Below, one piece after another: positions 16,275-58,536 of a DNA stretch of 64,000 nucleotides. Both the position numbers and the translations under genes were made by a program. Below the pieces are notes generated by a model. That model saw only the letters and a program-made list of their open reading frames with translations, made no database searches and was not told where the DNA came from. The stretch's first letter is position 1. Each line of letters starts with the position of its first letter. The stretch is from Nibribacter koreensis (lineage in GTDB: Bacteria > Bacteroidota > Bacteroidia > Cytophagales > Hymenobacteraceae), in NCBI RefSeq assembly GCF_039541795.1, contig NZ_BAABGX010000002.1, forward strand, positions 7,808 to 71,807. Direction: 5' to 3'.

Positions 16275-16328
16275 CCCATAATCGTTTTTGGCCTCTTTTG
16301 ATTAAAAGAGGCCAAAAACGATTATGGG
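16275..16328. repeat. Palindromic element, extended near-perfect 54-bp palindrome
   Basis: cccataatcgtttttggcctcttttgattaaaagaggccaaaaacgattatggg. Confidence 0.8.
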
Positions 16329-22449: not shown

Positions 22450-22489
22450 CCGTTTTAGGGCTGTTTTCTGGAAAACGGCCCTAAAACGG
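22450..22489. repeat. 38-bp intergenic palindromic element with compensatory arm changes
   Basis: ccgttttagggctgttttctggaaaacggccctaaaacgg. Both arms carry complementary substitutions (GGG/CCC). Confidence 0.75.
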
Positions 22490-23107: not shown

Positions 23108-23521
23108 CTATTTTATTCTTTCATCTAGGTACGCATCATCCCCATTGACGAAGGCTTCTAGAAGTTGTGCTGCCTGTTCTTTGGTCTGGTCAAGTAGTTC
23201 TGTGGTGTATTTCTCATCATGCTTTTTGACCAAGCCAAACAGACTCTTCACTATTTTTGGACGTCTGTAAAAGACATAGAATATGGTTTGTCCCTTGTCA
23301 ATTAATGCAGACAAAAGCATTTCCCTTTTCTGGTCTCTTTGGGATATGTTTAACGTGGGAGAAGAATGGAAATCATCAGTTGCCGCCACTTCCATTTTAT
23401 GAAGCCATTTTTCCCATGGCCATTCCAAGAACGTCTGTTTTAGTTTATAACCTTCTATGTAGCCCAAATCTACCTCTTCAGGTTGGAATGGATCTGAAAA
23501 TGCATGGTGGAAAACGGCCAT
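23108..23521 (-). CDS. Hypothetical protein (137 aa), immediately downstream of the giant AAA+ gene
   Basis: Same strand as the giant AAA+ gene with a 47-bp gap. No recognisable motif. Confidence 0.45.
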   Translation of the reverse strand: MAVFHHAFSDPFQPEEVDLGYIEGYKLKQTFLEWPWEKWLHKMEVAATDDFHSSPTLNISQRDQKREMLLSALIDKGQTIFYVFYRRPKIVKSLFGLVKKHDEKYTTELLDQTKEQAAQLLEAFVNGDDAYLDERIK

Positions 23522-23568
23522 AGTATTTAGATTAAATGACTAGTCTTATAATAAACAAAATTGCTGTT

Positions 23569-26500
23569 TTAATTCTCTCCTATCATCAACTTGCTCTCTG
23601 CTTTCTTTTCTCCCAGCACTTGCTTTATTCCTTCGAGCCCCTCAGAAATGTTCTCCATCTGCGCCAGTACCTGCCCTACCTGGTTGCCCGCTCCGCCAAA
23701 ACCGTTGAGCTTGTTGTTGCGCACAAAGGTGACTTTGATGTCTTCCCAGCGCTGGATTTCCTCTGGTGTGGCAATGTTAATGAGCTGTTTGAACTTGAGC
23801 ATGTTGGCCTCGGCGCCGGTGGTCAAGGTCTGGGACTCTGACTGGTAATGGGACAAGATAAGCGTGTGCAGTTCCTGGTCGTTCATGATGGGCATCACCT
23901 TCTCGGCGAGCTTGTTCATGTTGCGATACGAGCCCTGCATCTTGAACGGCGGCTCAGTGCGGTACTCGTCTGCCTGGGCGGCAGATTTAATGTACTCCAG
24001 GTTCACCTTCAGGATCACGTCCCGTATGGTCAGCAGTTTCTTGAGCACCGACACGTACTCGTTGATTTCTTCGGCGGTGTGGCTGGCTTCCAGTTCCAAG
24101 CCTTCGCCGTTGCCCGTTTCCGCTAGCTTCACCAGTGCATACACGTCTTTCTGGCTCTTGGCAGAGAGTTTAGCCAGCACGGTGTTAGACGTCATGGCAT
24201 TCTCCAGATAGCTTAGCTTGAACACGTCTTCGGTGTCGCCCAGAATGTCACCCAGGTTGTAAATATCGGCGCGGTTGGCCAGCATGTCAGGGATTCTGAA
24301 CTTGTCGCCGGTCTCAGTGTACGGGTTACCAGCCATGACTACGCACACTTTCTTGCCTCTGAAGTCATACGTCTTGCTTCGGCCTTTGTACACGCCCTCA
24401 ATCTTGCGCTGGGCATCACACAGGGAGATGAACTTCTGCAAGAACTCAGGATTACAGTGCTGGATGTCGTCCAGGTAAATCATGACATTGTCGCCCATCT
24501 CAAAGGACAGGTTCAGCTTTTCCAGCTCCTCGCGGGCGGCGGCATTGGGGGCTTCGGTTGGGTCAAGCGCCGTGACCTGGTGCCCGATAGCCGGTCCGTT
24601 GATCTTCATGAAGATGATGCCCAGACGGTTGGCAATGTACTCCATGAGCGTGGTCTTGCCGTATCCCGGAGGCGACAAGAGCAAGAGCATGCCCATGAGG
24701 TCGGTGCGCTTGGTTTCGCCGGCTGTGCCCATCTGCTTGGCCAGGTTGGCGCCAATAAGCGGCAGGTACACCTGGTCAATGAGTTTGTTGCGTACAAACG
24801 AAGACATGACCCGAGGCTTGAACTCCTGCAGGCGCAGTTCCTCTTCAAACGTGACGGTCATCTGGTGCTTGAGCGCATGGAATTCTTTAAACTGGCTCAC
24901 CACCTGCGTCTCATACTGGCCCAACTTCTGCTGGAAGCCATGGAAATGCAACGGGTATTGCTGTTCCTGCAACAACGGGTGACTGCCTTGCATGCCTGCT
25001 AAGGTCTCGCGCAGATTTGCGTGCACCACTTGCTTGGGCTTTAACTCCTGCAAGAGCAACAACACCGCCGCCTCGGGCACATATTCTTCTGCGTCTGCTT
25101 GATTAGTTTGAGTGGCAAAGGCTTTCAGCCAATGTGCCATCAGTTCATATTGCTCTACTTTGTTCTCTTCTAAGGCCCCGGCAGATGCCTCAAACATGGC
25201 CCAGGCCTTTTTCTCTGTGAGGTACTGATGGAAGTTCTGCACCAGCTCGGCGGCCAGTGCACTCGTCACAAACTGGTCACCGCGGGTAAGCTCAAAGAAA
25301 AGATACTCGCCGGCCGCGGTGGCATTGGCTTCTGGTAATAAACCGGTCTCCTGCTGTAAAGCCTGTAGCTCACGTTGTAAATCTGCCTTGATGTTGTCAA
25401 ACTGATGCGTTTCTGGGAACACCTGCAAAATGGCGCCCACGCCTTTGAGCTGATGATGGAACAGTTGTTTTTGGCCTTCTTTCATGAAAACAGCCCAAAA
25501 ACAACGGGCGGCGGCGCGGTCAACGGCTGTGTAGCGGAGCAAGTCTGCGGTTTTAAACAAACGCACCAAGGTACTTAAAATTAGCACCGCGTCATGGTCG
25601 TGCACGCCTTTCAAATACCCTTCATTAAAGCGCACGGACATGAATTTCTGCACGTATTCCGTCAGCTCCTCCGCTTTAAGTTTATGCAGTTCATCCAGGG
25701 TGAATAGACGTAGACTTCCTTCTGCGGCCTCTCCCGTAGCAGACGAATTTTTAGCTAGTTGCGCGGCTTGCAGAATCTGGAAGGCCAAGTATTCGGCACG
25801 ATAGACTTGGTTGTTCTCTGAGATAAGCGACTGCTCCCAAACGGGTCTGTAACTCAGGAAACGCTCATCGGTGATTTTCTCAAAGAAGCTGGTGCCGGTG
25901 AGGTGGTAGTACATGGCGTCCTCGCGGTGCACAATGCTCAGTTCCAGCGGCTGGGTATTCACCGTGAAATGGTGCGTCCCGAACTTGAGCACGTTCTGCC
26001 CGTCCACGAACAGCTCGCTTTTGTCTTTGAGCTGGCGTACGGCGTCTTCGCGTAACGTTTTCAGGCGGCTCTGGATGGCATCTGCCTTCACGGTATCGCC
26101 CATGGCCAAGAGCTCGTCTACGGTGGTGCGCACCTTCTCCAGCATTAAGTCAGACGCGAAGTAGCCGTTAATCTCAGCCACGGTGTCTAGCTTGCTGATG
26201 CGGCTTTGTACGGCTTTGAGAATGCGGTCGGCGGCTTGTTGCAGGGTGGTGGCGCGTTTGTTGCGGGCTTCCTGCAGGGCTACTTTCTTGCTTTCAAACG
26301 CAGAGTAAATCTCTTCGCGCTTGTCTGCAATGATTTCTAAAAAGGCGTCAAACTCAGAGAAGCGCCCTTCCAGCTCCTCCAACTGCACCATGAGCTTGGT
26401 CAGGTACTCTTCGCACTTCTGAGGCGTGTCACAGACGTCCAAAAAGTTGATGACGCTCTGACTGATGAGCTTGATTTGGGCATTAAATTCGGCCTGACCT

Positions 26501-28554
26501 TCAGAGCTCAGCAACTCTTGGCGTTTGCGTTTAAGGGTAGCTTTGGTTTTGTTAAAGGAGGCGTAGATGGTAGAAATGGCGTCTACAATGCGCGTGGTTT
26601 GGGTAGCGTCCTCAATCTTGAGGTTGCTTACAATCTCAATGAGCATTTCCAGCTCACTGCTCACGCCCGCAATCTCTTTCTCGGTGGCATCTGCTTCTAC
26701 CACTTTGGCAATCTTGTCAATGCCCTGCGTGATCTCCCCTACCCGTTTTTCATAGGGCACCAGGGCATCTGGCTTGAGCAAGAAGGCCACCGTCTGGTTG
26801 GCAATCTCCTGACTGAAGCCCTGCAACTGCGCCTCATAGTCTTCAATGCGCGTCAAGTCTGCGTAGCGCAGTTCCTTTAAAGAAATGACCTCGCCGCGCA
26901 CGGCACGCAGATCAGCCAGGGACTTGACAAAGTCATTGATGTGCCCGTTGCTCTGGACCTTCAGCTTGGATATCAAGTCACCAGCCAGGCCCAACACCTG
27001 GTCTACCTGCGCTTGTGTGCTTTTGCGTATGCTGATGACTTTCTCAAACTCCTCCACCGCGGCGGTGGCCGTCTGCCGGATGGCACCTACTGGTTCTGCC
27101 AAACCGAACGTCTCTTTCTGGTTCAGCCAGTGATACGAGTCCAGCAGGTCTGTAGTAATTTTAATGAGGTCCAGGTACAGGTTGTCATAGGAATCCTCTT
27201 TGTTGACCAGCGTCAGAATCTCGGTGCACTCGGCCATGGCCTGCACAATCTCCTTGTTGCCTATCTTATATAGGTAAGAGTCCTTGGTAACTGGTATGCT
27301 GAAGTTAGAGCCAATGTACGGCGTCTGCCAGATCTGGAGCGCATGGTGCTTTTTGGGTTCTTCGTCTGCCCTGAAATAGCATAACTCGCCGTTCTCATAA
27401 ATGGCGTAGCCGTGGCAGATGATGGGGCTTTCAATCTTCTGGGTGATCAGGTTGTAGCTCAACAGCAGGTACACGCCCGAATCCTTGTTGTAGAAGACGT
27501 ACAGGAAATCTTCGCCGTTGGGCGAGGTTATGCGCTTCTCAAACAACATCTCCTGCAAGCCGTTGTCAAAAGACTTGAACTCGCCGGTTTGCAGGTAATA
27601 GCCATACGCGTAAATGATGCCTTGGCTTTCTGGCAAAAACACGCAACAGTCCTGGATGGCGTCAATGCGGCGCGCTTCCTTCAGTTTGGCGTTGTAGACA
27701 ATGTAGCGGTAGGCATTCTCGCGGTACGGCCTGATCTTGAGCAGAATGAGGTTACCGATGATGGAATAATACAGCTCTGAGTCGTCCAGGGTCTGGTCTT
27801 TGTCCTCCACCGGCTCTGAGTAAATGCCCTGGCCCGAGTCAGTGTTGTCCTCTACCTTGATGGTAAGGTCGCCGTTGATGGTTTCTACAAAGACTTTGTC
27901 CTCAATGGAGATGTGCGGGTGCTTGCCTTTGCGCTGGGCCTCGCGGGGTACGCGCTTCCAGGCGAAGTCGTGCTGATTGGGGAACTGGTACTCATGGTCT
28001 GAGCGGTTGTCCAGATAGGTGAGCGTACCGCCCTGAATGGCCCATTTAAAGGTCTTGATGTCATTAACGCCTTTGCCAATCCTGAACACCATGAACAGGT
28101 GCACGCCCATGACGGCAAACTTGACAAACTGCGTGTTCTTGTAGTATTTGTACAGCTTCTGGAATTCGTCCTGAAAGGCGGCGTTCTGGATGAGGTCCAG
28201 TGGCTGGTGATGGAACTGGTGCCCTTCATAAGAATAGACACTGAACACGTCGCTCAGCTCTATTTCTGTTTTTAAGCCCAGGTGCACGTTGTAGCCAAAC
28301 AGCAGGAAATTTCCCACCGGCACCATGTCATAGGGCACGCAGTTGTGCTCCGTAGTGACACGCTCGGTGGCCAGCAACTTGGTCTCAATCGCTCCGAAGA
28401 CCTCTTTCCGTTCCTGGTTTAGCTGGTCCAGCAGACCGCGCAACTCCCCGCCACTTTTGGCCAGACGGTTACGCAGAATCTCATAGGTGCCGCCTTCTAG
28501 TTGAACTGGATTGGTTGTGGAAGAGGTATTATTTTCAGAAGTAATAGTGCTCAT
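23569..28554 (-). CDS. Giant multidomain protein (1661 aa) with a C-terminal AAA+ ATPase module of the MoxR/McrB/dynein (AAA_5) type, an N-terminal beta-rich domain and a long central helical region
   Basis: Uninterrupted 4986-nt ORF. Walker A 'LLLLSPPGYGKTT' lies near residue 1235. Walker B 'VMIYLDDIQHCNPE'. Sensor 1 'VVMAGNPYTE'. An Arg-finger-like motif 'RIPDMLANRADIY'. The N-terminal roughly 450 aa are beta-strand rich; the central roughly 700 aa are helical or coiled-coil. Confidence 0.8.
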   Translation of the reverse strand: MSTITSENNTSSTTNPVQLEGGTYEILRNRLAKSGGELRGLLDQLNQERKEVFGAIETKLLATERVTTEHNCVPYDMVPVGNFLLFGYNVHLGLKTEIELSDVFSVYSYEGHQFHHQPLDLIQNAAFQDEFQKLYKYYKNTQFVKFAVMGVHLFMVFRIGKGVNDIKTFKWAIQGGTLTYLDNRSDHEYQFPNQHDFAWKRVPREAQRKGKHPHISIEDKVFVETINGDLTIKVEDNTDSGQGIYSEPVEDKDQTLDDSELYYSIIGNLILLKIRPYRENAYRYIVYNAKLKEARRIDAIQDCCVFLPESQGIIYAYGYYLQTGEFKSFDNGLQEMLFEKRITSPNGEDFLYVFYNKDSGVYLLLSYNLITQKIESPIICHGYAIYENGELCYFRADEEPKKHHALQIWQTPYIGSNFSIPVTKDSYLYKIGNKEIVQAMAECTEILTLVNKEDSYDNLYLDLIKITTDLLDSYHWLNQKETFGLAEPVGAIRQTATAAVEEFEKVISIRKSTQAQVDQVLGLAGDLISKLKVQSNGHINDFVKSLADLRAVRGEVISLKELRYADLTRIEDYEAQLQGFSQEIANQTVAFLLKPDALVPYEKRVGEITQGIDKIAKVVEADATEKEIAGVSSELEMLIEIVSNLKIEDATQTTRIVDAISTIYASFNKTKATLKRKRQELLSSEGQAEFNAQIKLISQSVINFLDVCDTPQKCEEYLTKLMVQLEELEGRFSEFDAFLEIIADKREEIYSAFESKKVALQEARNKRATTLQQAADRILKAVQSRISKLDTVAEINGYFASDLMLEKVRTTVDELLAMGDTVKADAIQSRLKTLREDAVRQLKDKSELFVDGQNVLKFGTHHFTVNTQPLELSIVHREDAMYYHLTGTSFFEKITDERFLSYRPVWEQSLISENNQVYRAEYLAFQILQAAQLAKNSSATGEAAEGSLRLFTLDELHKLKAEELTEYVQKFMSVRFNEGYLKGVHDHDAVLILSTLVRLFKTADLLRYTAVDRAAARCFWAVFMKEGQKQLFHHQLKGVGAILQVFPETHQFDNIKADLQRELQALQQETGLLPEANATAAGEYLFFELTRGDQFVTSALAAELVQNFHQYLTEKKAWAMFEASAGALEENKVEQYELMAHWLKAFATQTNQADAEEYVPEAAVLLLLQELKPKQVVHANLRETLAGMQGSHPLLQEQQYPLHFHGFQQKLGQYETQVVSQFKEFHALKHQMTVTFEEELRLQEFKPRVMSSFVRNKLIDQVYLPLIGANLAKQMGTAGETKRTDLMGMLLLLSPPGYGKTTLMEYIANRLGIIFMKINGPAIGHQVTALDPTEAPNAAAREELEKLNLSFEMGDNVMIYLDDIQHCNPEFLQKFISLCDAQRKIEGVYKGRSKTYDFRGKKVCVVMAGNPYTETGDKFRIPDMLANRADIYNLGDILGDTEDVFKLSYLENAMTSNTVLAKLSAKSQKDVYALVKLAETGNGEGLELEASHTAEEINEYVSVLKKLLTIRDVILKVNLEYIKSAAQADEYRTEPPFKMQGSYRNMNKLAEKVMPIMNDQELHTLILSHYQSESQTLTTGAEANMLKFKQLINIATPEEIQRWEDIKVTFVRNNKLNGFGGAGNQVGQVLAQMENISEGLEGIKQVLGEKKAESKLMIGEN

Positions 28555-28640
28555 GGTGGTAAAGGTTGTACCTCACCCCCAGTCCTCTCTTAGATGAGAG
28601 TATACTAATTTATTTGGGTGAAGTAGAATTTGGTACAAGT

Positions 28641-28679
28641 CCGTTTTTGGCTTGTTTCTGAGAAATCAGGCTAAAAACG
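28641..28679. repeat. 38-bp intergenic palindromic element
   Basis: ccgtttttggcttgtttctgagaaatcaggctaaaaacg. Confidence 0.7.
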
Positions 28680-28765
28680 ACTGTTTAATTAAGAATTCAA
28701 TATTCAATTTTACTTTATCCTGAGGCTCAATATCGAGTCAATGGAATAAGGCGCGTAGCCTCTAC

Positions 28766-29341
28766 CTACTTTCTCGTTTTATAAGAGATGAGTGAAAATA
28801 TTTCAGGATTCTGGCTTGAGCATTTTATCGTCACACTATCACCTATTGAGAGGTTTTTATCATTCCAAATTTCCTGATGATACTGTTTTCCAGATAATGT
28901 ATATTGAAATACTGCGTACTCCCTGCTGTTTCGACCCGTCTTCATGTAAATAGTTTCTACTTTTCCAGATACCACCTCGCCATATTTCTCCAATTGTCCA
29001 TTTTGGTAAAAGGTAGAAATTGCAAAAAGTGAGAAAAACATTAGGAAAAGGAGTATAACGCCCAACAATACATTACTAATTCTACCCCATCTACTATCAG
29101 GAAAAACTTGAAGGCGCCATACACCGAACCCTATAGTACTTATCATCACTAGACCAATGGCCATTTTTGGAAGGACACTGTCGTATGTATGAGAATAAAA
29201 TACATGTAAGAGAACACCAATAACAAACGCCAAAGCTAATCCCCACGCAATCAATCGGTTTTGAGAAGCCTCGCGGGCTTTTATCATTTCTCTTACTCGC
29301 CTAATTTGGTCAGCGGATGGTCGCTTAGTTTGTGGGCTCAC
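28766..29341 (-). CDS. DUF3592-like membrane protein (paralog 1)
   Basis: Three to four N-terminal TM helices plus a C-terminal beta-rich domain 'EKYGEVVSGKVETIYMKTGRNSREYAVFQYTLSGKQYHQE...IKCSSQNPEIFSLI'. It is a paralog of the adjacent gene. Confidence 0.55.
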   Translation of the reverse strand: MSPQTKRPSADQIRRVREMIKAREASQNRLIAWGLALAFVIGVLLHVFYSHTYDSVLPKMAIGLVMISTIGFGVWRLQVFPDSRWGRISNVLLGVILLFLMFFSLFAISTFYQNGQLEKYGEVVSGKVETIYMKTGRNSREYAVFQYTLSGKQYHQEIWNDKNLSIGDSVTIKCSSQNPEIFSLISYKTRK

Positions 29342-29403
29342 TTTAATGATCAGTTTTTAACTTATTGTTTAAAACTTCCTAGCATATGGCTTGAACTAAA
29401 AGT

Positions 29404-29946
29404 TTAATACAGATTATTCTCTTGAGGGAAGACCATAGTAAACAATTCAGGATCTTGACTTGAGCACCTCAATTGGATTCTTTCGCCAATTTTGAGATGG
29501 TATTTCTCATTATTCACTTCCTGCACATACCTTTTAGTATTTATATAGTAGTGAATCACAGCTGTTTCAGTGGTGGATTTATAACCTCGTTTCAAATAGA
29601 TCAAATCTACTTCCCCATTGGCAGAAACACCATATTTCTCTAACTGATAGCTTTCATAAGCATCTTGCCCCTGGATCAACCCAAAGAAAAAAACTGCATA
29701 AATCAGAAGACCTATCCAATAATTAGCAAACCTATTCCACTTTGATTTGGGAATGACATAAAACCAAGAGTAATGCACAGCAGCAATACTCCCAATCGGA
29801 AACCAAATACCCAAGTCAGTTATATAACTGTCATAATGGTAAGCATGAAAAACAAACAAGTAGACACCAACAAAAAACGATGGAATGGCTACCCACGTGG
29901 CAACTACTCGTCCATCTATTGATCTACTTCTGGGTTTGCTTCTCAA
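29404..29946 (-). CDS. DUF3592-like membrane protein (paralog 2)
   Basis: Same architecture as paralog 1. The C-terminal segment 'EKYGVSANGEVDLIYLKRGYKSTTETAVIHYYINTKRYVQE...LRCSSQDPELFTMV' aligns with the neighbour. Confidence 0.55.
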   Translation of the reverse strand: MRSKPRSRSIDGRVVATWVAIPSFFVGVYLFVFHAYHYDSYITDLGIWFPIGSIAAVHYSWFYVIPKSKWNRFANYWIGLLIYAVFFFGLIQGQDAYESYQLEKYGVSANGEVDLIYLKRGYKSTTETAVIHYYINTKRYVQEVNNEKYHLKIGERIQLRCSSQDPELFTMVFPQENNLY

Positions 29947-29985
29947 TCTGTTTAATTACCGTTACTACCTACTGCAACGCCCCCC

Positions 29986-30666
29986 TTAGTTCTTCAACTG
30001 GGCAAGTTGTTGTTTCAGTTCTTCTACCTTATTGGCCTCAGACTGCTGGTCACGTTTAAGTTTGATTTCTTTCTCGCGGGCGGCCTGCTTGTAGTTTTTG
30101 AATTCTTCGCTTACTTCTTCAAAGGCGTCTATCTTCTCCTGGGCCTCGGCGTTGCTTTTCTTGTACATGACAGCAAAAACCGCCGCTAATACGCCTAAAC
30201 CTAGAATGATGCCCAAGCTCAGCCACACGTACACTTGCTTGTCCATGTCAAGGCCCAGCACAGAAAGGCTGGCTACGTCATGGGCGCCTTGCTGAATCTG
30301 CTGCTCTTTCTTGGCGTTCTCCTGCTGTAAGGCCACTACCTTCGCTTTCTGGTCGGCTAGCTCTTGTTGCGTTTTGGCCAGGGCCACGGCGGTTTCTTTG
30401 CCTGCATTCTTGATGCTCTGTTCCCTTACCCGTAAAGTGTCCTGAACGCTTTTAGATAAGGCATCAAAACTGCTTTCCCGCACTACTCTATAGGCCTGGC
30501 CGTTTTCTGAGTAAGAAGAAGACCTGAACTTTAAGGAGTTGAACTGTTGTGGCAAGGTATAGGCGGCCCGGTTTTTGGCCGGCGCGGCAGGTTTGGCTGG
30601 AGCTTGCGCCATGGCAGATGTCAAGACCGAAGCACTAAACAAAAGGGAAAGGGTAAGAGCTTTCAT
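29986..30666 (-). CDS. Secreted/bitopic coiled-coil protein, hypothetical
   Basis: Signal peptide MKALTLSLLFSASVLTSAMAQA. Q/K/E-rich coiled coil on either side of a TM helix 'VWLSLGIILGLGVLAAVFAVMY'. Confidence 0.5.
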   Translation of the reverse strand: MKALTLSLLFSASVLTSAMAQAPAKPAAPAKNRAAYTLPQQFNSLKFRSSSYSENGQAYRVVRESSFDALSKSVQDTLRVREQSIKNAGKETAVALAKTQQELADQKAKVVALQQENAKKEQQIQQGAHDVASLSVLGLDMDKQVYVWLSLGIILGLGVLAAVFAVMYKKSNAEAQEKIDAFEEVSEEFKNYKQAAREKEIKLKRDQQSEANKVEELKQQLAQLKN

Positions 30667-30807
30667 GGGGATAAAATCAAAGTCAAAAAATATTACCTCT
30701 GAAAATAAAGCTACTGATTTCCGGTGAAGGGTAAAAGCATACGCCCACTCTTCTCAGGTTTTTCAAATTTTTTTCCAGGGTAATACCATTCACAACGACC
30801 GCTCCCC

Positions 30808-30845
30808 CGCTTTTAGCCTCTTTTCCTGAAAATAAGCCAAAAACG
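30808..30845. repeat. 38-bp intergenic palindromic element
   Basis: cgcttttagcctcttttcctgaaaataagccaaaaacg. Confidence 0.7.
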
Positions 30846-30914
30846 ATTCTTCCCTCAAGCCTCCTTCCTGCGCCTCCTCTCACTTGGAGAAGAGGCGCTT
30901 AGAAAGAGTTTTCT

Positions 30915-33086
30915 TTAGTTTAAGGTATACACCGGCTTGTCACCAAGACCCAGGGCCGTGGCCGTAGACGTCAGTTCCTTGAGCGTGTTGGCCGTGGCGT
31001 CATCCAGGGTCTTCTGTTGCATCATCTTCAAGAGCAGGGCAGAAACGCTTAGGTTACGCACATCTTCGGTGTCCATGCCAAACTGCGTGATGAAGCGCTG
31101 TAGGTTGGCTTTGAAGTCAATGTGGCCGTTGCCGTCCTTCTGGAAGAAGGCTTCTTTCACGGTACCCAGCACTTCGCTGTTGGTCACCAGGCGGTCTACC
31201 TGCTTGCCCTTGGTGATGGAGCCTACTATCTGATCAAAGAACATGGTCTCACCGCCTACAATGTCAATCTTGGCAGCTTTGAGGGCCTCAGAAATCACGC
31301 TGGCCTGGGCCGCGGCAATCTCTTTCTGGATGTCAATGTGGGCCAGTTCAATGGCTTTGTCTTTCTCCAGGCGTAGCTTGAACTCTTCGTGCTCTTTGCC
31401 TACGCCGTCCAGTTTCTTCATGGCGTCTGCCTTCTCTTCAATGCCTTTGGCTTCTACGGTGAACTTCTCTCCGCTTACACGGGCTTCCGCTAAACCGCGC
31501 TTCTCCTCGGCAGAGGCCAGGTTGGCGATGATAGAAGCGTCTGCCAAGCCTTTCTCCTGGGTTACTTTGGCGGCTACCATTCCTAGTTTCTCGTCGGCTT
31601 CGGCTTGGGCCTCTGCTTGAACTTTGGTGGCTTTAGCGGTGGCTATGGCCTGGCGCTCGGTTACGTTGGCTTCGGCCTCGCCTTCTTTCTGACGGGCGGC
31701 GGCTTTGGCTTCCATTACCTGGGCTTCAGACAAACCAACGGCGGCGGCTTGCGTGGCCTCGGCTTCAGCCATTACTTTGATGGCTTGGGCGCGGTTGATG
31801 GAAGAGGTCTTCTCGGCTTCGGCGTCAATCAACAACTGCTCAGCTCTAAACTCAGCGGCGGCTTTGGCAGCCTCAGCACCTTTGATCTCTTTCACCAGGG
31901 CTTCTTCGGCTTCCATAGTGGCCGTCGTGATGGCGACAGATTTGATACGCTCGGCTTCGGCGAAGGCTTTGGTGTCTTTGATTTTCTCTTCTTCCTCTAC
32001 CACCGCTTTCTCTACTACCACGCGCTCTTTGATGATGGCCTGGATGTTCTTACGCTCTTCTTCTACGGCTTTATCTTTCTCAATCTGAGCCAGAGCCACA
32101 ATGCGTTGCATTTCGTTTTCTTCTAACAGCTTAGCTTGCTCTACGCGTACCGTTTCAATGGCATCTGTACGTTGCTTGCTACGCTCGGCCACCAAAATCT
32201 GGCGGTCACGGTTCTGTTCTGATATCTGCACTTCTTCATCGGTGGCAATGCGGGCTCTTTCTGAGATCATGCGTTGCTCCTGGGTTACTTTCTCAATCTC
32301 GGCAGATTCTCTGGCTTTGATGGAGGCAATCTCGCGGCGTTGCTTTTCCTGGTTCTCGGCTAGTTGCTTTTCCAGCTCCAGAATAGTCTCTTGCGCTTCT
32401 ACGTTTTGCTTTTTGATGGTCTTCTCGCGCTCGCGTTCAATCAGGTTGGCCTGTACTTTCTGCTTGGCAGTCAGGTCAATGATCTTCTTGATACCTTCGG
32501 CGTCCAGGATGTTGTTCTCATTGAGGCTAGAAAGCGGCGTCTGCTCTAAGTAATCAATGGCACAGTCATCCAAAATATAACCGTTCAAGTCTGTTCCAAT
32601 GGTGGCCAAGATCTGGCGCTTGAACTCGTCGCGGCTTTGGTACAGGTCCACGAAGTCAAAATGCTTGCCCACGGTCTTCAAGGCTTCTGAGAACTTGGCA
32701 TCAAAAAGGCTCTCTAAGGCCATTGGGTCTGAGGCGCGCTTACAGCCAATGGACTGCGCCACGTTCACCACGTCCTCGGCGGTTTTATTCACGCGCACAA
32801 AGAAGTTCACTTTGATGTCGGCGCGCAGGTTGTCTTTACAGATCAAGCCTTCTGTGCCGGTGCGGGCAATGACAATGGTTTTGAGGGTGATGTCCATCAT
32901 TTCCAGCTTGTGGATGATGGGCACCACGAAGATGCCGGAGAAGGATACTTTGGTATCGCCCATACCGGTACGCACCATGGCTTCGCCCTGAATGGCCTTG
33001 CGGTACATCTTTATGATGACAATAAAGAGCCCGAAGACAATCACCGCCAGCATGATGGTGGTGGCTAGAGTAAGAGATTGAAACAT
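30915..33086 (-). CDS. yqiK: Flotillin-family SPFH/band-7 protein (YqiK-like) with extended E/A-rich coiled-coil tail
   Basis: N-terminal TM helix, then an SPFH domain ('GEAMVRTGMGDTKVSFSGIFVVPIIHKLEMMDITLKTI...'), then a very long EA-repeat coiled coil. Confidence 0.8.
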   Translation of the reverse strand: MFQSLTLATTIMLAVIVFGLFIVIIKMYRKAIQGEAMVRTGMGDTKVSFSGIFVVPIIHKLEMMDITLKTIVIARTGTEGLICKDNLRADIKVNFFVRVNKTAEDVVNVAQSIGCKRASDPMALESLFDAKFSEALKTVGKHFDFVDLYQSRDEFKRQILATIGTDLNGYILDDCAIDYLEQTPLSSLNENNILDAEGIKKIIDLTAKQKVQANLIEREREKTIKKQNVEAQETILELEKQLAENQEKQRREIASIKARESAEIEKVTQEQRMISERARIATDEEVQISEQNRDRQILVAERSKQRTDAIETVRVEQAKLLEENEMQRIVALAQIEKDKAVEEERKNIQAIIKERVVVEKAVVEEEEKIKDTKAFAEAERIKSVAITTATMEAEEALVKEIKGAEAAKAAAEFRAEQLLIDAEAEKTSSINRAQAIKVMAEAEATQAAAVGLSEAQVMEAKAAARQKEGEAEANVTERQAIATAKATKVQAEAQAEADEKLGMVAAKVTQEKGLADASIIANLASAEEKRGLAEARVSGEKFTVEAKGIEEKADAMKKLDGVGKEHEEFKLRLEKDKAIELAHIDIQKEIAAAQASVISEALKAAKIDIVGGETMFFDQIVGSITKGKQVDRLVTNSEVLGTVKEAFFQKDGNGHIDFKANLQRFITQFGMDTEDVRNLSVSALLLKMMQQKTLDDATANTLKELTSTATALGLGDKPVYTLN

Positions 33087-33098
33087 AAGCTTGATTAA

Positions 33099-33719
33099 TT
33101 AAAGGGATTCAAAAGGTTCTATTAAATACAGTTGGTTTTCGGGGAGGTAATCTATGACCAAGGCGGTTTCGCCTTTCTTGGCAAGATGGCCTTGGGTAGT
33201 TTTGACGTTGAGCAACAGCGGCGAGCCTTTGGTTTTGACCGAGGCCTGCCCTACCTGGTCTTCATTGGCAGGTAATAGAATGGTGCACAGTTGGCCAATC
33301 ACGTTCATTTTGGGCGCTTCCTCGGTTTCCATGACCGTGAACAACTTCACGAAAGGCCAGGTAAGCAACTTAGCCAGAAACAAGCACACAAACCCAATGG
33401 GAAATAGTAGCAATACTCCCAACCAGCTGTCCTGTGTGCCCAAGGTATGGTTCACGCCCACGCTCAAGGCCCAAAACGGCAGCGCGAAGAATGACAGAAA
33501 AAACATGAGCGGCAGGCGGCCCAGGTTAAAGAAGGCCAGAGCCGAGTTCAACCAGGCAATGGAGGCAATTCCGTCAGCGTCCGCGTCTAAGTCAATGTCC
33601 AGAGAGCTAATGTCCAGCAGGCCTACAATCACAATGACCCAATAGATAAGGACAAAAAGAAGCAAGCCAGAGGCAAAGGCGTTTGCGCTGGAAAAAGAGG
33701 CTTGTAAAAGTTCAATCAT
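33099..33719 (-). CDS. yqiJ: NfeD-like / YqiJ-family inner-membrane protein with C-terminal OB-fold
   Basis: Four TM helices and a C-terminal beta domain 'GQASVKTKGSPLLLNVKTTQGHLAKKGETALVID'. It sits directly upstream of the flotillin gene, which is the conserved NfeD-flotillin pairing. Confidence 0.7.
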   Translation of the reverse strand: MIELLQASFSSANAFASGLLLFVLIYWVIVIVGLLDISSLDIDLDADADGIASIAWLNSALAFFNLGRLPLMFFLSFFALPFWALSVGVNHTLGTQDSWLGVLLLFPIGFVCLFLAKLLTWPFVKLFTVMETEEAPKMNVIGQLCTILLPANEDQVGQASVKTKGSPLLLNVKTTQGHLAKKGETALVIDYLPENQLYLIEPFESL

Positions 33720-34039
33720 ACGCGGGTGGAATCTCTCCTATAAATCTACACATTCTCCTTTGATTCTTCTGGCATTTGAAGCCGACGGACAGAAATAATT
33801 CCTGCCGCCTGCCCTCACAACGCGTTCTGCCCCTTGCGTCTACCTTTATATCAGCAGAACGCCAAAGGTTAGTCAGCATGCTCCTTTTTCTATTTGCACC
33901 GGCGGTACCTTGGCCATCATTTGCATTTCTGCGGGAGTGGTCAACAGCCAAATGCCCATGGCCGCGAAAAACATAAACCCAAGTTTGCCCACCGTTTCTA
34001 GAGTTAAAAGTTAAGAGGAATGAGTTTAGGGTTGGTGGT

Positions 34040-34077
34040 CGTTTTTGGGCTGTTTTCTGGAAAACAGCCCAAAAACG
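34040..34077. repeat. 38-bp intergenic palindromic element, perfect
   Basis: cgtttttgggctgttttctggaaaacagcccaaaaacg. Confidence 0.8.
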
Positions 34078-34081
34078 CTCC

Positions 34082-34828
34082 TTATTCTGCTGGCGTGGCA
34101 GTGGTGGACTGCGGTTCTGACGGCGTGGCAAAGCCTAGCTTGGCTTTAAGAGCCTCTACTTCTTTGGCAGACTTCTGCGCCGAACTGCTTTCCAGCGCCT
34201 TCTCAATCTCCTGGTCAATGGAACGGCTCTCGTTGGCAATCTCTCCATACGACTCGGCCAAGGCTTCTTCTACCGCCACTTTCTCCTTCATGCGCTCCAG
34301 CAGGGCTACCGTACCAGATGAGTCTATCTGCGCCAGTTGCTTGTTGATGGTCTTGGTGGCGTTGCTCACGGTCACCCTGGACTTTAACACGCGCAGTTCA
34401 TTCTCCCATTTGCTGATGGTAGACCTAAGCGTCTTAATGTTGGTGTCCATCTGGGCCACAGATTTCTCAAACTTAGCCTGGTCTTCTTGCGCAGAAGCGG
34501 CCAACGCCGTGTTCTCTTCTTTCTTCACCAGCGCCTCGCCGGCCAGACGATCCGCGTCTGCAGAGCTTAATTCGCCTTTGTGGGCCCGTTGCAAGAGTTG
34601 TACCGCCTTGTTTTCATAATCCTGCGCCTTGGCGCGGTAGGTTTCCACGTCGTTGCGCGACCGGATGGCCATGGACTTAACCTCGGCTAGGCCTCTCAGG
34701 CTTTTGTCCAGGTCTTCTTTCATGTCCCGGATGCCCTGCTCGGTTAACTTGATGGGGTTCTCCAGTTGGTCTACCGCTGAGTGGGCCTCGGCCTGGCCTA
34801 TCTTAAAGATGCGTTTTAAAATATTCAT
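34082..34828 (-). CDS. pspA: PspA/IM30/Vipp1-family protein (phage-shock protein A; bacterial ESCRT-III superfamily)
   Basis: 248 aa. The N-terminus 'MNILKRIFKIGQAEAHSAVDQLENPIKLTEQGIRDMKEDL' matches the PspA pattern (M..F.R......N..LD..EDP....Q.IR.M...L). All-helical coiled coil. Confidence 0.8.
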   Translation of the reverse strand: MNILKRIFKIGQAEAHSAVDQLENPIKLTEQGIRDMKEDLDKSLRGLAEVKSMAIRSRNDVETYRAKAQDYENKAVQLLQRAHKGELSSADADRLAGEALVKKEENTALAASAQEDQAKFEKSVAQMDTNIKTLRSTISKWENELRVLKSRVTVSNATKTINKQLAQIDSSGTVALLERMKEKVAVEEALAESYGEIANESRSIDQEIEKALESSSAQKSAKEVEALKAKLGFATPSEPQSTTATPAE

Positions 34829-34839
34829 GTGCGTGGTCT

Positions 34840-35238
34840 TTAGTTTTTTGAGAATTGAATGAGTTGGTCTGAGTATTCGCTCAGTAAAAGCGCAAGCGAG
34901 TTGAGGGAGGCCTCAATCTCATGAAGGTCCAATCGGGCCATTTGCAGGGTGTCCCTGAAGATGAGCTTCTGCCCGGTCTCATCCAGCACGAAGGCGCCAT
35001 GAATGATGTCCCGGTTTTTCTGGAGCAGGCTTTGGCAGATTTCCACGGTCAGCTGGGGCAGGTCCATCAGGTACTGCTCCATAATAAGGAGCGGGTCTGT
35101 ACAGCCAATAACCAGGTTGGTGATGCCCAAGCTTTCCTTGTCTACCACAAACACGCAGTCTCTGGAGTCTTCCAGCTTAATCTGGAAGTCCAGTTCCAGC
35201 AGGTAATCTTTCACTTTCAGGAAGTAGTTGTTTTCCAT
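34840..35238 (-). CDS. YbjN-like domain protein (putative sensory-transduction regulator fold), hypothetical
   Basis: 132 aa. The start overlaps or abuts the pspA stop. YbjN-family proteins are frequently encoded next to pspA. Confidence 0.45.
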   Translation of the reverse strand: MENNYFLKVKDYLLELDFQIKLEDSRDCVFVVDKESLGITNLVIGCTDPLLIMEQYLMDLPQLTVEICQSLLQKNRDIIHGAFVLDETGQKLIFRDTLQMARLDLHEIEASLNSLALLLSEYSDQLIQFSKN

Positions 35239-35777: not shown

Positions 35778-36572
35778 ATGTCGTGCATCGGGAAGAACAT
35801 AAAGAAAATTAGGACGGTCAAGAATTTGAGCCAGGCCGGTTTCGCGCAACTCTTTGATCTGGCGCGCCCTAGCGTGGGTGCCTATGAAGAAGGCCGCTCT
35901 GAACCTAAGATTGAGACGCTGGTACAGATTGCCCGGCATTTTGGGGTGAGCCTGGACTTAATGATCACAAAGGAACTCACCATCAATGACTTGTATGGGT
36001 TTGACATCTTCAAGCGAGATCTACCCCAAAGCCAACTGCTCAAAAAAGTAGCAGAGCCATCAATCTCTGCTTCCTCTACCGTGTTAGTGACGGCCCAAGC
36101 TTTGCCCGCCTATCTTTCACAGGGACAGGACGCCACGTTTCTCCAATCCCTGCCCGTTATTCAGTTACCTAGCCAGGTGCAGACGCTTCATAGAGCGTTT
36201 GAGCATACCGGTCTAGAGATGGAATACCAGCAGCAAGGCATTTTAGAAGGTGATGTTCTATACGCGGCCTCTGTGCCCTTGAATGCGCATCTTTTACAAC
36301 CGCAAGCCGTGTACGTGGTGGTGACGGCCACCCAAATCGTGACCCGGCGCTACCAGGGGCTGAGCCACCATAACGAGCTGTTTTTAAAGGCGGATAATCC
36401 AGCGTACGAGGTTGCGTTGGTACCCATGGGAGACGTGAAAGAGCTTTGGCAGGTGCAGGGCGTGTATAGTACTCGCTTAACTTTACCCACTCCTATAGAA
36501 ACACGTTTAGCCAAGCTGGAGCACCAGGTACAGGAACTGCAACTGCAAAAGAAAGCAGAGCAGGCAAAGTAA
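35778..36572 (+). CDS. XRE-family HTH regulator with C-terminal S24 (LexA/cI)-like domain
   Basis: N-terminal HTH 'IRTVKNLSQAGFAQLFDLARPSVGAYEEGRSEPKIETLVQIARHFGVSLD'. The C-terminal beta domain resembles the S24 peptidase fold. Confidence 0.65.
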   Translation: MSCIGKNIKKIRTVKNLSQAGFAQLFDLARPSVGAYEEGRSEPKIETLVQIARHFGVSLDLMITKELTINDLYGFDIFKRDLPQSQLLKKVAEPSISASSTVLVTAQALPAYLSQGQDATFLQSLPVIQLPSQVQTLHRAFEHTGLEMEYQQQGILEGDVLYAASVPLNAHLLQPQAVYVVVTATQIVTRRYQGLSHHNELFLKADNPAYEVALVPMGDVKELWQVQGVYSTRLTLPTPIETRLAKLEHQVQELQLQKKAEQAK

Positions 36573-36591: not shown

Positions 36592-36630
36592 CCGTTTTTG
36601 GCCTGTTTCCTGGAAAAGAGGCCAAAAACG
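36592..36630. repeat. 38-bp intergenic palindromic element
   Basis: ccgtttttggcctgtttcctggaaaagaggccaaaaacg. Confidence 0.7.
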
Positions 36631-36704: not shown

Positions 36705-37190
36705 ATGTCTCTGAACTCCTTCTTCTCTCCCTCTTCTACTAAAATAAAGAACGGCGTCTATTTCAGTCCCGGTGAAGAGTGCCTGAACGCCATCATCTCT
36801 TTTATTCTGGCGGCCAACGCCTCCTTGAAAATCTGCGTGTTCACCATTTCTGATGACCGCATTACCCGGGCTATTTTGCAGGCCTACCAGAGAGGCATTG
36901 CCGTAGAACTGCTCACGGACAATGAGAAGCTGTTTGACAAGGGCTCAGACATCAGGGAGCTGGCCATGGCGGGGATTGAGATTAGAGTAGACAATACGCC
37001 CAACCACATGCACCATAAATATGCGGTCATTGACCAGAAGCACGTGCTCACGGGCAGTTACAACTGGACCAGAAGCGCCGCGCTCTACAACCATGAGAAC
37101 GTGCTGGTCTCCTCAGACCCGCAACTGGTAAAGCCTTACTTAATAGAGTTTGACACGCTATGGGCAGAGATGGTGGCCTTTGAAGGCTAA
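36705..37190 (+). CDS. Single-HKD phospholipase-D-superfamily nuclease (Nuc-like)
   Basis: 161 aa. HKD motif 'HHKYAVIDQKHVLTGSYNWTRSA' (HxKx4Dx6GSxN). The size matches Nuc-type dimeric endonucleases. Confidence 0.75.
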   Translation: MSLNSFFSPSSTKIKNGVYFSPGEECLNAIISFILAANASLKICVFTISDDRITRAILQAYQRGIAVELLTDNEKLFDKGSDIRELAMAGIEIRVDNTPNHMHHKYAVIDQKHVLTGSYNWTRSAALYNHENVLVSSDPQLVKPYLIEFDTLWAEMVAFEG

Positions 37191-39822: not shown

Positions 39823-40935
39823 CTAGGCGCGTTCTTCTTCCTGCCCGTCTTTCTTATGGTATTTAGAATTGGCGTTGGCCAAAAGCAGCTGCCGGATGCG
39901 GGCTATGTGCAGTTTGAGCTCGTCTGCCCGCTCCTGTTGGCTTTCTGACCAGTAGTGGTGGCCTCTGCGCCGGTCTTGTTGAGCCATGGCTTGGAGCATG
40001 GTGCGGCGCTCCTCTAGCATGCGCATGGCAATCCAAAGTGTCTCTTCCAGTGCTTCTACATTGGCATTCAGGAAAGAATCTTGCGTGAAGGCGTGCCCCA
40101 CGTGGCACCGGTAGTGCTTTACATGCCCGGTGCTTACCTCCCATAAGGCGCCGCCGCAGTCTGGGCAGGAAAAAGCCGAGCGGGGTCCCATCAGTTCTGT
40201 GTCTGTTATTCCCCCCGAGTCCAGCATGAGGCGTTCGGCTATCTGGGCTTCATAGGCAATGTCTTCGGGAATGACTTCTTGTGAGGAAGCCGGCACATAC
40301 ACCAGTTCCTTCAACAGCTCGCCCATCTCTGCCACTTTCACCACATAGTCCACCTCCATCATGTCCAGCACGCTCTGGGGCATGTCTGGGTATTCTGCCT
40401 CTGCGGGGCTTTGCACCATGGTGATGCCACCGCTGCGCTTGATCATCTCCATGCCCACGGTGCCGTCCTGCAACATGCCGGTGAGCACAATGCCAATGAC
40501 CCTGCTGTCATAGGCTGCGGCGGCAGACCTGAACAAGGGATCAATGGCGGGCCTGAACAGGTTTTCCCTAGGCCCTTTGGTCACCAGCATCCTTCCCTTT
40601 TGCAGCAGCAGGTGGTTGTCTTGGGGCACAAAATACACATTACCGTGCTCTATGGCCTGCTCATGCTGGGCCACCTGGCACTGCAACGGCGTGCATTTAC
40701 TTAAGCGCTCCACCAGAATCTGGGAGTTGGATTCTCTGGCCAGGTGCTGGACTATGAAAATGGACGCAGGCAGGTTGGCAGGCAACTGGGACAGCAGGCT
40801 GGTGAGCACGCTCATACCGCCGGCAGAGGTGCCAATGACAATGATATCATGGTGCAAAAATTTCATCTTGTGGCGGTGGTGGCTTGTCCTGTTCATACGA
40901 GCAATGGGTACCAAGAGGTAATGCAAGGAAGGCAA
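39823..40935 (-). CDS. Stand-alone CheB-type protein-glutamate methylesterase domain protein with C-terminal Zn-ribbon/helical extension (no REC domain)
   Basis: 'IIVIGTSAGGMSVLTSLL...IFIVQHL...GIVLTGMLQDGTVGMEMIKRSGGITMVQSP' is the CheB methylesterase catalytic core. C-terminal 'CPDCGG...HYRCHVGH'. Alternative start MKFLHHD at 40866. Confidence 0.75.
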   Translation of the reverse strand: MPSLHYLLVPIARMNRTSHHRHKMKFLHHDIIVIGTSAGGMSVLTSLLSQLPANLPASIFIVQHLARESNSQILVERLSKCTPLQCQVAQHEQAIEHGNVYFVPQDNHLLLQKGRMLVTKGPRENLFRPAIDPLFRSAAAAYDSRVIGIVLTGMLQDGTVGMEMIKRSGGITMVQSPAEAEYPDMPQSVLDMMEVDYVVKVAEMGELLKELVYVPASSQEVIPEDIAYEAQIAERLMLDSGGITDTELMGPRSAFSCPDCGGALWEVSTGHVKHYRCHVGHAFTQDSFLNANVEALEETLWIAMRMLEERRTMLQAMAQQDRRRGHHYWSESQQERADELKLHIARIRQLLLANANSKYHKKDGQEEERA

Positions 40936-41154
40936 TTAACCGCCTGCCCCTGTAGGACCAAATCACGGCCCGGGCCTCCGTATTAATCCGTATTCTTGTT
41001 TGGAACGACCTCTTTTTAGTGGAGTGTGAGGGGTAATTTGTACCTTGTAGGATTCAAAAACACAGGCTTGGTGTGTGGTTTAAGACAGGTCCTCTCCTGC
41101 TTTTCTGACGCCCCGGCGCAAGACCCATGCCTGCCTGCTACGTACACCAATTCA

Positions 41155-50727: not shown

Positions 50728-50771
50728 ATGCGTTTTTGGCCTGTTTTCCAGAAAATAGGCCAAAAACGCAT
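50728..50771. repeat. Palindromic element, extended 44-bp copy (inverted-loop orientation)
   Basis: atgcgtttttggcctgttttccagaaaataggccaaaaacgcat. Confidence 0.8.
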
Positions 50772-58494: not shown

Positions 58495-58536
58495 CCCGTT
58501 TTTGGCCTGTTTTCTGGAAAACAGGCCAAAAACGGG
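58495..58536. repeat. 38-bp intergenic palindromic element, perfect consensus copy
   Basis: cccgtttttggcctgttttctggaaaacaggccaaaaacggg. Confidence 0.85.

Follow-up and report, generated by a model that had tools for sequence, protein, structure and literature searches.

What does a very large AAA+ ATPase do when its gene stands among genes for flotillin-like and PspA-like proteins? The question is raised by a 64,000-nucleotide stretch of the genome of Nibribacter koreensis (Hymenobacteraceae, Cytophagales; contig NZ_BAABGX010000002.1, positions 7,808 to 71,807), which in its whole length is called the window here. Its initial annotation picked out an uninterrupted 5-kb open reading frame (ORF) for an uncharacterised machine of 1661 aa with possible ties to PspA and flotillin. 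As judged from sequence and gene order, there is about an even chance that this protein is an ATPase that remodels sub-membrane flotillin and/or PspA scaffolds, with flotillin/YqiJ as its primary client. The gene is located as follows:

23569 to 28554, minus strand: giant gene, 1661 aa, encoding a beta-propeller, a coiled coil and an AAA+ ATPase (DUF3686, DUF7902 and AAA)

The ORF begins with ATG and continues for 1661 codons without interruption, and its product corresponds at 100% identity to an annotated N. koreensis protein, which NCBI names “DNA repair ATPase”. Pfam recognises DUF3686 (PF12458, E 3.4e-191), DUF7902 (PF25472, E 7e-28), AAA and AAA_5 in the sequence. A word-indexed search returned 5492 related proteins at E ≤ 1e-10 among the candidates scored, and the best 120 of them all carry the same Pfam set and measure about 1630-1710 aa. 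An exhaustive HMMER search with residues 1-1200 yielded 1434 clusters (50% identity) at E ≤ 1e-3 and 451 at E ≤ 1e-30, and relatives turned up in at least 587 genomes when one genome per species was scanned. Judged by these matches, the protein is no orphan and is a member of a large, already catalogued bacterial family. The description as an uncharacterised machine is apt for a large AAA+ protein in the experimental sense; it is not apt in the sense of unclassified, given DUF3686 and DUF7902. In Hymenobacter sp. DG25B, the annotation places a close homologue (P0072, 61% identity) on a plasmid.

Which genes accompany the family? In the window, the relevant neighbours are the following:

30915 to 33086, minus strand: flotillin/YqiK-like protein (divergent SPFH/Band-7), 723 aa, with an N-terminal transmembrane (TM) segment
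33099 to 33719, minus strand: YqiJ/YuaF-like (NfeD-type) multi-TM protein, 206 aa (YqiJ_N, E 0.01)
34082 to 34828, minus strand: PspA/IM30 (bacterial ESCRT-III superfamily), 248 aa (PF04012, E 3.5e-36)
34840 to 35238, minus strand: CesT/Tir-like (YbjN) chaperone-fold protein, first gene of the block (PF22550, E 3.5e-51)
35778 to 36572, plus strand: XRE-type helix-turn-helix (HTH) regulator, divergent (HTH_3, E 2.6e-11)

Two of these identities need qualification. The flotillin-like protein of the window has no Pfam or PDB sequence match of its own, so that its identity is drawn from its orthologues (48-81% identical to the window copy), of which 4 of 31 match Band_7, at best with E 3.3e-13; the family profile also matches E. 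coli QmcA weakly (1.2e-3). Both NCBI (“flotillin family protein”) and JGI name the 723-aa protein flotillin/YqiK, and its TM-like segment spans residues 1-33. The flotillin call of the initial annotation is thus backed by the database name and by these orthologues, and not by any match of the window copy itself. Similarly, YqiJ_N matches 8 of 26 orthologues of the 206-aa protein (best 1.5e-5), for which UniRef gives the name “DUF1449 family protein”. The Rufibacter orthologue of the HTH regulator shows a weak C-terminal Peptidase_S24 match.

Neighbourhoods were compared in 80 loci (labelled L001 onward) returned by the one-genome-per-species scan, which span Bacteroidota, Planctomycetota, Verrucomicrobiota/Lentisphaeria, Desulfobacterota and Clostridia. 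Profiles built from the neighbour proteins of the window were searched against all ORFs of these loci, and all genes were also clustered independently. Just five neighbour families recur: the flotillin-like and YqiJ-like proteins, PspA, the CesT/Tir-like protein and the divergent HTH regulator. Flotillin is the most conserved neighbour. Of the 63 loci with sufficient flank (at least 2.6 kb upstream), 60 have its gene immediately 5' of the giant gene and in the same orientation, with a median gap between the two of about 80 nt; YqiJ stands upstream of flotillin in 53/61. Counting again those loci with enough flank, PspA precedes the giant gene in 19 of 27 from Bacteroidota and in none of 34 from other phyla. 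The CesT gene and the regulator occur in 18 loci each, exclusively in Bacteroidota, and the regulator is divergent. Adjacency to flotillin is near-obligate across five phyla, flotillin/YqiJ being the universal partner of the giant gene and PspA a lineage-specific addition. Because of this difference in linkage, flotillin/YqiJ is ranked as the primary client. Absence of a conserved neighbourhood had been named at the outset as a reason to give up the idea; since synteny is conserved across the loci, strongly for the flotillin/NfeD-like genes and within Bacteroidota for PspA, that reason falls away.

This operon has been described before. Ravi, Anantharaman, Aravind, Gennaro et al. (mSystems 2024, PMC11237479; bioRxiv 2020) report a conserved CesT/Tir-PspA plus YqiJ/YuaF operon, sometimes with a PLD hydrolase, and place a Betapropeller+Coiled-coil+AAA-ATPase in that CesT/Tir-PspA-YqiJ-flotillin operon. 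Their Table S3 lists for Dokdonia donghaensis (ANH61663.1) a divergent cHTH+protease gene, CesT_Tir, YqiJ-YuaF, Band-7/flotillin and Betapropeller+Coiled-coil+AAA-ATPase, and there the CesT_Tir gene is followed by PspA, the subject of the entry itself (PMC11237479). Shortened flotillin-YqiJ(-ATPase) operons are more widespread, the PLD gene belongs to some proteobacterial versions, and ATP-dependent, ESCRT-like membrane dynamics or remodelling is proposed for the operon (PMC11237479). The Pfam family CesT_Tir_1, which the first gene of the window's block matches, corresponds to the CesT/Tir-like family defined in the same study, and its ATPase is equivalent to Pfam DUF3686 + DUF7902 + AAA.

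The window locus has the propeller, coiled coil and AAA+ domain, YqiJ and flotillin upstream on the same strand, and CesT-PspA with a divergent cHTH gene. It thereby resembles the published operon in domain architecture, gene order and divergent cHTH+protease regulator, and a PLD gene is occasional in both. It differs in having a 226-aa coiled-coil gene and two DUF3592-like genes between flotillin and the ATPase, and a clade-specific 137-aa gene after it. Family, operon and hypothesis are therefore already published, and the locus is an ordinary member with lineage-specific insertions. The expectation that a dedicated AAA+ partner of PspA or flotillin would be new does not survive, because Ravi et al. 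describe exactly this operon and this hypothesis.

Could PspA, and not flotillin, be the proper client? Vps4 is the AAA+ ATPase that remodels ESCRT-III polymers, and in a similar manner the giant protein might be a dedicated PspA (ESCRT-III) disassembly ATPase, in which the propeller and coiled coil recognise PspA, the ring recycles its subunits and flotillin is just a platform. This is unlikely, although several arrangements speak for it. Like Vps4/CdvC, the giant protein is an AAA+ ATPase co-encoded with a member of the ESCRT-III superfamily and proposed to remodel a membrane polymer. PspA and its CesT-like partner share the same-strand block in the window and in the 19 Bacteroidota loci, and in two Phycisphaerae loci a PspA gene directly follows the giant gene, about 30 nt 3' of it (L027, 6790-7479, PF04012 E 2.4e-13; L073, 4766-5449). 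Because the Phycisphaerae arrangement is independent of the CesT-PspA-first order of Bacteroidota, it supports a real functional link to PspA. According to a 2025 review, a Vps4-like ATPase appears to be absent in bacteria, which would leave the niche open. Unlike Vps4/CdvC, however, the giant gene is linked primarily to flotillin: the 34 loci outside Bacteroidota that lack an upstream PspA nearly always have flotillin there, and in the window pspA is set apart from the genes 3' of it by a strong hairpin. The ATPase domain bears on the same question, with these features:

23755 to 24819, minus strand: single AAA+ module, residues 1246-1600, with conserved N-linker, alpha/beta core and helical lid
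24649 to 24675, minus strand: Walker A SPPGYGKTT, residues 1294-1302
24460 to 24480, minus strand: Walker B IYLDDIQ, residues 1359-1365
24364 to 24405, minus strand: predicted pre-sensor-1 beta-hairpin, residues 1384-1397, between helix alpha3 and strand beta4
24271 to 24336, minus strand: sensor-1 MAGNP (residues 1407-1411) to candidate arginine finger R1428, motif NPYTExG..F.IPDMLANR

The AAA+ module is the best-conserved part of the giant protein, which suggests a working enzyme. PF00004 (29 bits) and AAA_5 (PF07728, 24.3 bits) exceed their curated cut-offs and align with residues 1290-1413. Motif conservation was read from an alignment of 38 diverse homologues, down to 30% identity. Residues 1294-1301 (SPPGYGKT) of Walker A are invariant and T1302 is conserved to at least 90%; D1362, D1363, I1364, Q1365 and H1366 are invariant in the Walker B region, as are G1409, N1410, P1411, Y1412, T1413 and R1428 further on. 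The C-terminal ATPase motifs listed in the initial annotation are all located and conserved in this way, R1428 being a candidate arginine finger by its position alone, at a typical spacing of 18 residues from sensor-1. The Walker B motif (VMIYLDD) retains the Mg-binding Asp, and its second acidic residue is Asp, not Glu, in 38/38 sequences. DnaA likewise has a DDIQ Walker B.

AlphaFold2 (AF2) models were made for residues 1-900 and 860-1661, with mean predicted local distance difference test (pLDDT) scores of 83 and 79, respectively. The C-terminal model contains the alpha/beta Rossmann-type core and helical lid of an AAA+ fold, and DSSP places the strands of the pre-sensor-1 hairpin at fragment positions 525-530 and 533-538 (confidence 70-80). 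The classical (Vps4/p97) AAA clade lacks such a hairpin, so that on this model the giant ATPase would fall outside it. Moreover, the loop after beta2, NGPAIGH, has no aromatic residue of the kind found in threading pore loops; its N1319, G1320, P1321, G1324 and H1325 are invariant among 27 Bacteroidota sequences (identity at least 59%). Finally, Pfam finds no MIT domain in the giant protein (E 0.01), and the N-terminus is a propeller. A Vps4-type ATPase, as suggested by analogy in the initial annotation, is not what these features describe, and they also count against a dedicated PspA disassembly enzyme; in favour of the latter, M. sedula Vps4 is the second Foldseek match of the ATPase (E 3.5e-3).

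The first and most frequent Foldseek match is NorQ (E 1.8e-3), and RuvB and CbbQ come after M. sedula Vps4. PDB searches with the single sequence and with the 38-sequence profile align only about 35-70 residues of the P-loop region with p97/VAT, NVL, RuvB and Rix7 (E about 1e-4 to 1e-3), and no solved relative of the giant protein was found by them. The MoxR/AAA_5 label given initially is reasonable because of the nearest folds (NorQ/CbbQ) and an AAA_5 score above cut-off, and the ATPase seems nearest to this type, a placement that is weakly supported. NorQ and CbbQ (PDB 9qh4, 6l1q, 5c3c) share 13-17% identity with it at Foldseek E > 1e-3. A VWA-domain gene of the NorD/CbbO type, typical of MoxR ATPases, is not among the conserved neighbours in the gene clustering of the 80 loci, and a helix-2 hairpin is not evident, residues 1320-1337 being mostly coil between beta2 and alpha2 at a pLDDT of only about 50-75. 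Unlike NorQ/CbbQ, the giant protein also has about 1250 residues of propeller and helices fused N-terminally, and DD instead of DE in Walker B.

SPFH cages are known to pair with AAA+ machines, as HflK/C does with FtsH. The giant gene offers a parallel, in which an SPFH scaffold is paired with an AAA+ machine and accompanied by a gene for an NfeD/YqiJ-type membrane partner. By this analogy, the protein could be a quality-control or extraction motor at the flotillin cage, an equivalent of FtsH-HflK/C that unfolds membrane protein clients corralled by flotillin/YqiJ. Such a motor is improbable here: neither the giant protein nor YqiJ nor any conserved neighbour has a protease domain, the canonical aromatic pore loop is missing, and the closest folds are the MoxR-type remodellers NorQ/CbbQ, not unfoldases. 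In addition, no TM segment is predicted in the giant protein, whereas flotillin and YqiJ do have them.

The rest of the protein divides into the following regions:

27130 to 28446, minus strand: DUF3686/beta-propeller domain, residues 37-475 (Pfam E 3.4e-191, full-length model match 1-448/448)
26005 to 27129, minus strand: long-helix/coiled-coil scaffold, residues 476-850 (AF2 helices 427-848)
26515 to 26769, minus strand: DUF7902, residues 596-680 (Pfam E 7e-28)
24820 to 26004, minus strand: small beta domain (855-895) and second all-helical domain, residues 851-1245 (pLDDT mostly > 89)
25588 to 25608, minus strand: motif GVHDHDA, residues 983-989, in the confidently modelled helical middle domain

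Both the N-terminal beta-rich domain and the central helical scaffold of the initial annotation are borne out by this layout. The AF2 model begins with a helix (21-53), followed by an all-beta domain with strands from 59 to 410, predicted with a pLDDT of about 85-92, in which we count some 6-7 propeller blades. Foldseek relates this domain to generic six- and seven-bladed propellers, including CyRPA, prolyl oligopeptidase and the clathrin terminal domain (E about 1e-5, identity 7-11%). The proposed Foldseek comparison of the models thus recovered an AAA+ fold and a propeller, and its matches are generic and weak. Between propeller and ATPase, the model has about 800 residues of helices in total. 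Residues 851-1245, to the end of the second helical domain at about 1245, match no Pfam or PDB family at the sequence level. Within them, G983, H985 and D988 of the GVHDHDA motif are invariant and D986 is conserved to at least 90% family-wide, so the motif could be a metal-binding or interface site.

A propeller followed by some 800 residues of helices is also what a structural coat of the clathrin/protocoatomer kind would look like. The giant protein would then form a lattice with flotillin under the membrane, its AAA+ domain being a nucleotide switch for its own assembly. The family is abundant among the loci of Planctomycetota and Verrucomicrobiota, and Foldseek does match the clathrin heavy-chain terminal domain with linker and the clathrin D6 coat (E 5.6e-5 to 2e-4). 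However, with very low TM-scores (0.15-0.22) and 8-10% identity, these are generic propeller matches. The helices are long and coiled with no clear alpha-solenoid, and conservation peaks in the ATPase site, as expected of a working enzyme. A coat is, accordingly, distinctly improbable.

The database name leads in yet another direction. NCBI and the Pfam description of DUF3686 both make the protein a DNA repair ATPase, which is extremely unlikely. Apart from these names, it is favoured by nothing but weak RuvB matches in the Walker A region (E about 1e-3), and these span about 35-45 P-loop residues and reach 22.6 bits against a family cut-off of 282. Pfam shows no SMC/Rad50-type ABC head, nuclease or DNA-binding domain, and no SMC/SbcC model of Pfam or NCBIfam matches. 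The sole NTPase (nucleoside triphosphatase) motifs of the protein are those of the contiguous C-terminal AAA+ domain, not of a split ABC-type head. Furthermore, the conserved neighbours are all membrane-scaffold genes. The name was presumably transferred through coiled-coil similarity to SbcC/SMC-type annotations.

How, then, might a remodeller of flotillin and PspA scaffolds be built and act? The core module would comprise three genes, encoding the YqiJ/NfeD-like protein, the YqiK-like flotillin and the propeller/coiled-coil/AAA+ protein. In Bacteroidota it would be extended upstream by the CesT/Tir-like chaperone, PspA and the divergent HTH(-S24) regulator, which would set expression. The C-terminal MoxR-like AAA+ domains would oligomerise into a ring, presumably a hexamer, and the N-terminal propeller, held on its long helical arm, would dock onto the cytoplasmic flotillin cage and/or PspA polymers; the latter, where present, would be handled by the CesT-like chaperone. 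Through ATP turnover, sub-membrane scaffolds could be assembled, disassembled or turned over during envelope stress. Due to the lack of an aromatic pore loop and the closeness to NorQ/CbbQ, local remodelling of the partner is more likely than processive threading in the manner of Vps4 or ClpB. A wider claim is possible, if doubtful: that the family is the missing bacterial ATP-driven scaffold remodeller, derived from MoxR and acting on flotillin cages and, in some phyla, on PspA/ESCRT-III polymers, a non-homologous functional counterpart of Vps4. Ravi et al. have already put this idea forward as a prediction from genomic context.

An AAA+ protein functionally tied to PspA in an envelope-stress locus is also present in Proteobacteria, namely PspF. 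PspF, however, belongs to the NtrC-type enhancer-binding proteins and carries an HTH, whereas the giant protein matches neither HTH nor sigma-54 activator models of Pfam or NCBIfam. Regulation in the window is probably exerted by the divergent XRE-HTH protein instead.

Whether the genes of the window are expressed together depends on the layout of the block, for which these features matter:

34040 to 34077, minus strand: strong 17-bp hairpin, four bases past the pspA stop codon (-26.5 kcal/mol, z -7.1)
28643 to 28680, minus strand: degenerate palindrome copy, downstream of the DUF3592 pair and upstream of the giant gene (-11.7 kcal/mol, z -2.0)
22451 to 22488: strong hairpin after the DinB gene (-30.5 kcal/mol, z -9.6)
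28766 to 29341 and 29404 to 29946, minus strand: two paralogous small DUF3592-like membrane-protein genes, marginal Pfam match
29986 to 30666, minus strand: 226-aa protein with signal-peptide-like hydrophobic N-terminus, coiled coil and one predicted TM segment (TM-like residues 143-171)
23108 to 23521, minus strand: 137-aa ORF 3' of the giant gene, a real gene with a known orthologue

The initial annotation placed the giant gene at the head of a 12-kb same-strand block. Because all block genes lie on the minus strand, and transcription runs from 35238 to 23108, the giant gene is instead near the 3' end, second from last in the order CesT, PspA, YqiJ, flotillin, three inserted genes, giant gene and 137-aa ORF. 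The common strand is correct, but a single operon is improbable. The hairpins are members of a family of near-perfect palindromes that recurs throughout the genome (26 half-sites, 2.0 expected; -26 to -30 kcal/mol), and all paired copies checked against ORF ends lie just past stop codons; they are probably the terminator of the species or a REP-like (repetitive extragenic palindromic) element. The hairpin after pspA probably terminates or attenuates transcription between CesT-PspA and yqiJ-flotillin, and the copy at 28643-28680 may be a weak terminator. Since such gene-end palindromes interrupt the block, it more likely forms two or three transcription units than one operon. A sigma-70 promoter scan found 18 sites against 15 expected; promoters of Bacteroidota differ from the sigma-70 consensus.

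Further intergenic palindromes of the form CGTTTTTGGSC...GSCCAAAAACG are present at 16283-16320, 36593-36630, 50731-50768 and 58497-58534. A 139-aa ORF with a TTG start (33712-34131, minus strand) spans the gap between pspA and yqiJ, overlapping the 3' end of pspA and the hairpin. It looks spurious, and the 362-nt spacer is probably regulatory instead.

Several points weigh against scaffold remodelling as the role of the giant protein. In the window, 2.3 kb of inserted genes and the weak hairpin lie between its gene and flotillin, and the strong hairpin lies between its gene and pspA; because of these inserts and hairpins, co-transcription with either is uncertain here. Three loci (L011, L023 and L035) have a giant gene with no flotillin within 7-10 kb. 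Due to the Asp at the normal position of the catalytic Glu in Walker B, hydrolysis may be slow or regulatory. Gene adjacency is no proof of physical interaction, and full-text searching of the literature for DUF3686 and PF12458 brought up no experimental work on the family.

Do the inserted genes belong to the module? The initial annotation placed the DUF3592 paralogues in the block and the 137-aa ORF next to the giant gene, and both are indeed present. The two DUF3592-like proteins are true paralogues (33% identity, E 2e-30), yet the family assignment is marginal, one scoring 24.7 bits against a cut-off of 25.3 and the other having no Pfam match. Profiles of the two DUF3592-like proteins, the 226-aa protein and the 137-aa protein gave no match in the 80 loci, which rules out all four as conserved partners. 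In Rufibacter tibetensis, whose giant protein is 88% identical, the DUF3592 pair is absent and the 226-aa coiled-coil gene is present. The 226-aa protein (“Secreted protein” in UniRef) is 69% identical to its 223-aa counterpart in Rufibacter and is known only in this close relative. The 137-aa protein, which has no Pfam, NCBIfam, PHROG or PADLOC match, has a 50%-identical orthologue in R. tibetensis (L081, 15765-16202), two genes downstream of the giant gene. The GC content at third codon positions (GC3) is 0.35 and 0.36 in the DUF3592 genes and 0.41 in the 137-aa gene, compared with 0.59-0.71 in the core genes. These outlying values indicate that the DUF3592 pair and the 137-aa gene, both lineage-specific, are recently acquired DNA on both flanks of the giant gene.

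The flotillin-giant junction (28555-30914 in the window) is an insertion hot spot, with about 25 loci carrying 350-1700 nt of unrelated cargo (among those listed are L001, L003, L004, L007, L015, L016, L026, L028, L032, L034, L038, L049, L055 and L071). This cargo includes nucleases, either DUF559 endonuclease-like (L003, L004, L049) or PD-(D/E)XK (L034, L071), as well as a toxin-antitoxin-like pair of small ORFs (L055), a transposase-like gene (L015) and lipoproteins. Reading the gap ORFs with a Pfam scan, and not by profile, also revealed DUF3592-like genes unrelated to the window pair in the same gap of L007 (E 3e-8) and L032 (E 1e-3). DUF3592-like membrane proteins have been acquired independently in at least three lineages, represented by the window, L007 and L032.

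Such variable cargo might suggest that the giant protein is part of an anti-phage or abortive-infection system, as might one further gene of the window:

36705 to 37190, plus strand: small PLD/HKD-superfamily protein beside the regulator (PLDc_2, E 1.3e-29)

This protein has weak DrmC-like PADLOC matches (4.8e-12), and one homologue of the giant protein, P0072, is plasmid-borne. A defence function is nevertheless very unlikely, and the reading was rejected on the PADLOC and PHROG results. The giant protein matches only mad8 (6e-4) and IetA (8e-3) in PADLOC, both in the P-loop region, and in PHROG just a clamp-loader P-loop; its core neighbours fit no model. In line with the initial annotation, which set it apart from DruE, Avs and BrxC, no nuclease, helicase or STAND model of Pfam matches the protein, and no PADLOC system model fits. 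Unlike defence islands, the module shows vertical conservation and keeps a stable gene order from phylum to phylum, and its regulator and neighbours fit an envelope-stress Psp context.

The PLD gene is a sporadic accessory, also present in Rufibacter, L008, L009, L074 and L076; in L008, L074 and L076 it lies downstream of the giant gene. Farther along the window, a stand-alone CheB methylesterase-like gene (39823-40935, minus strand) adjoins a 1036-aa CheB/CheR/PAS fusion (41026-44136, plus strand), an unusual chemotaxis-type signalling pair for a Cytophagales genome.

For the family, this analysis corrects three assignments: the name “DNA repair ATPase” is unsupported, the universal partner is flotillin/YqiJ and not PspA, and the DUF3592 and 137-aa genes are recent insertions and no components of the module. 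What would be new, if the proposed role is true, is its experimental demonstration, along with the weight given to flotillin, in place of PspA, as the primary client. For the assembly and disassembly of bacterial flotillin cages and PspA/Vipp1 polymers, this family is a concrete and widespread candidate. If the giant protein does remodel these scaffolds, this would matter for the biology of envelope stress.

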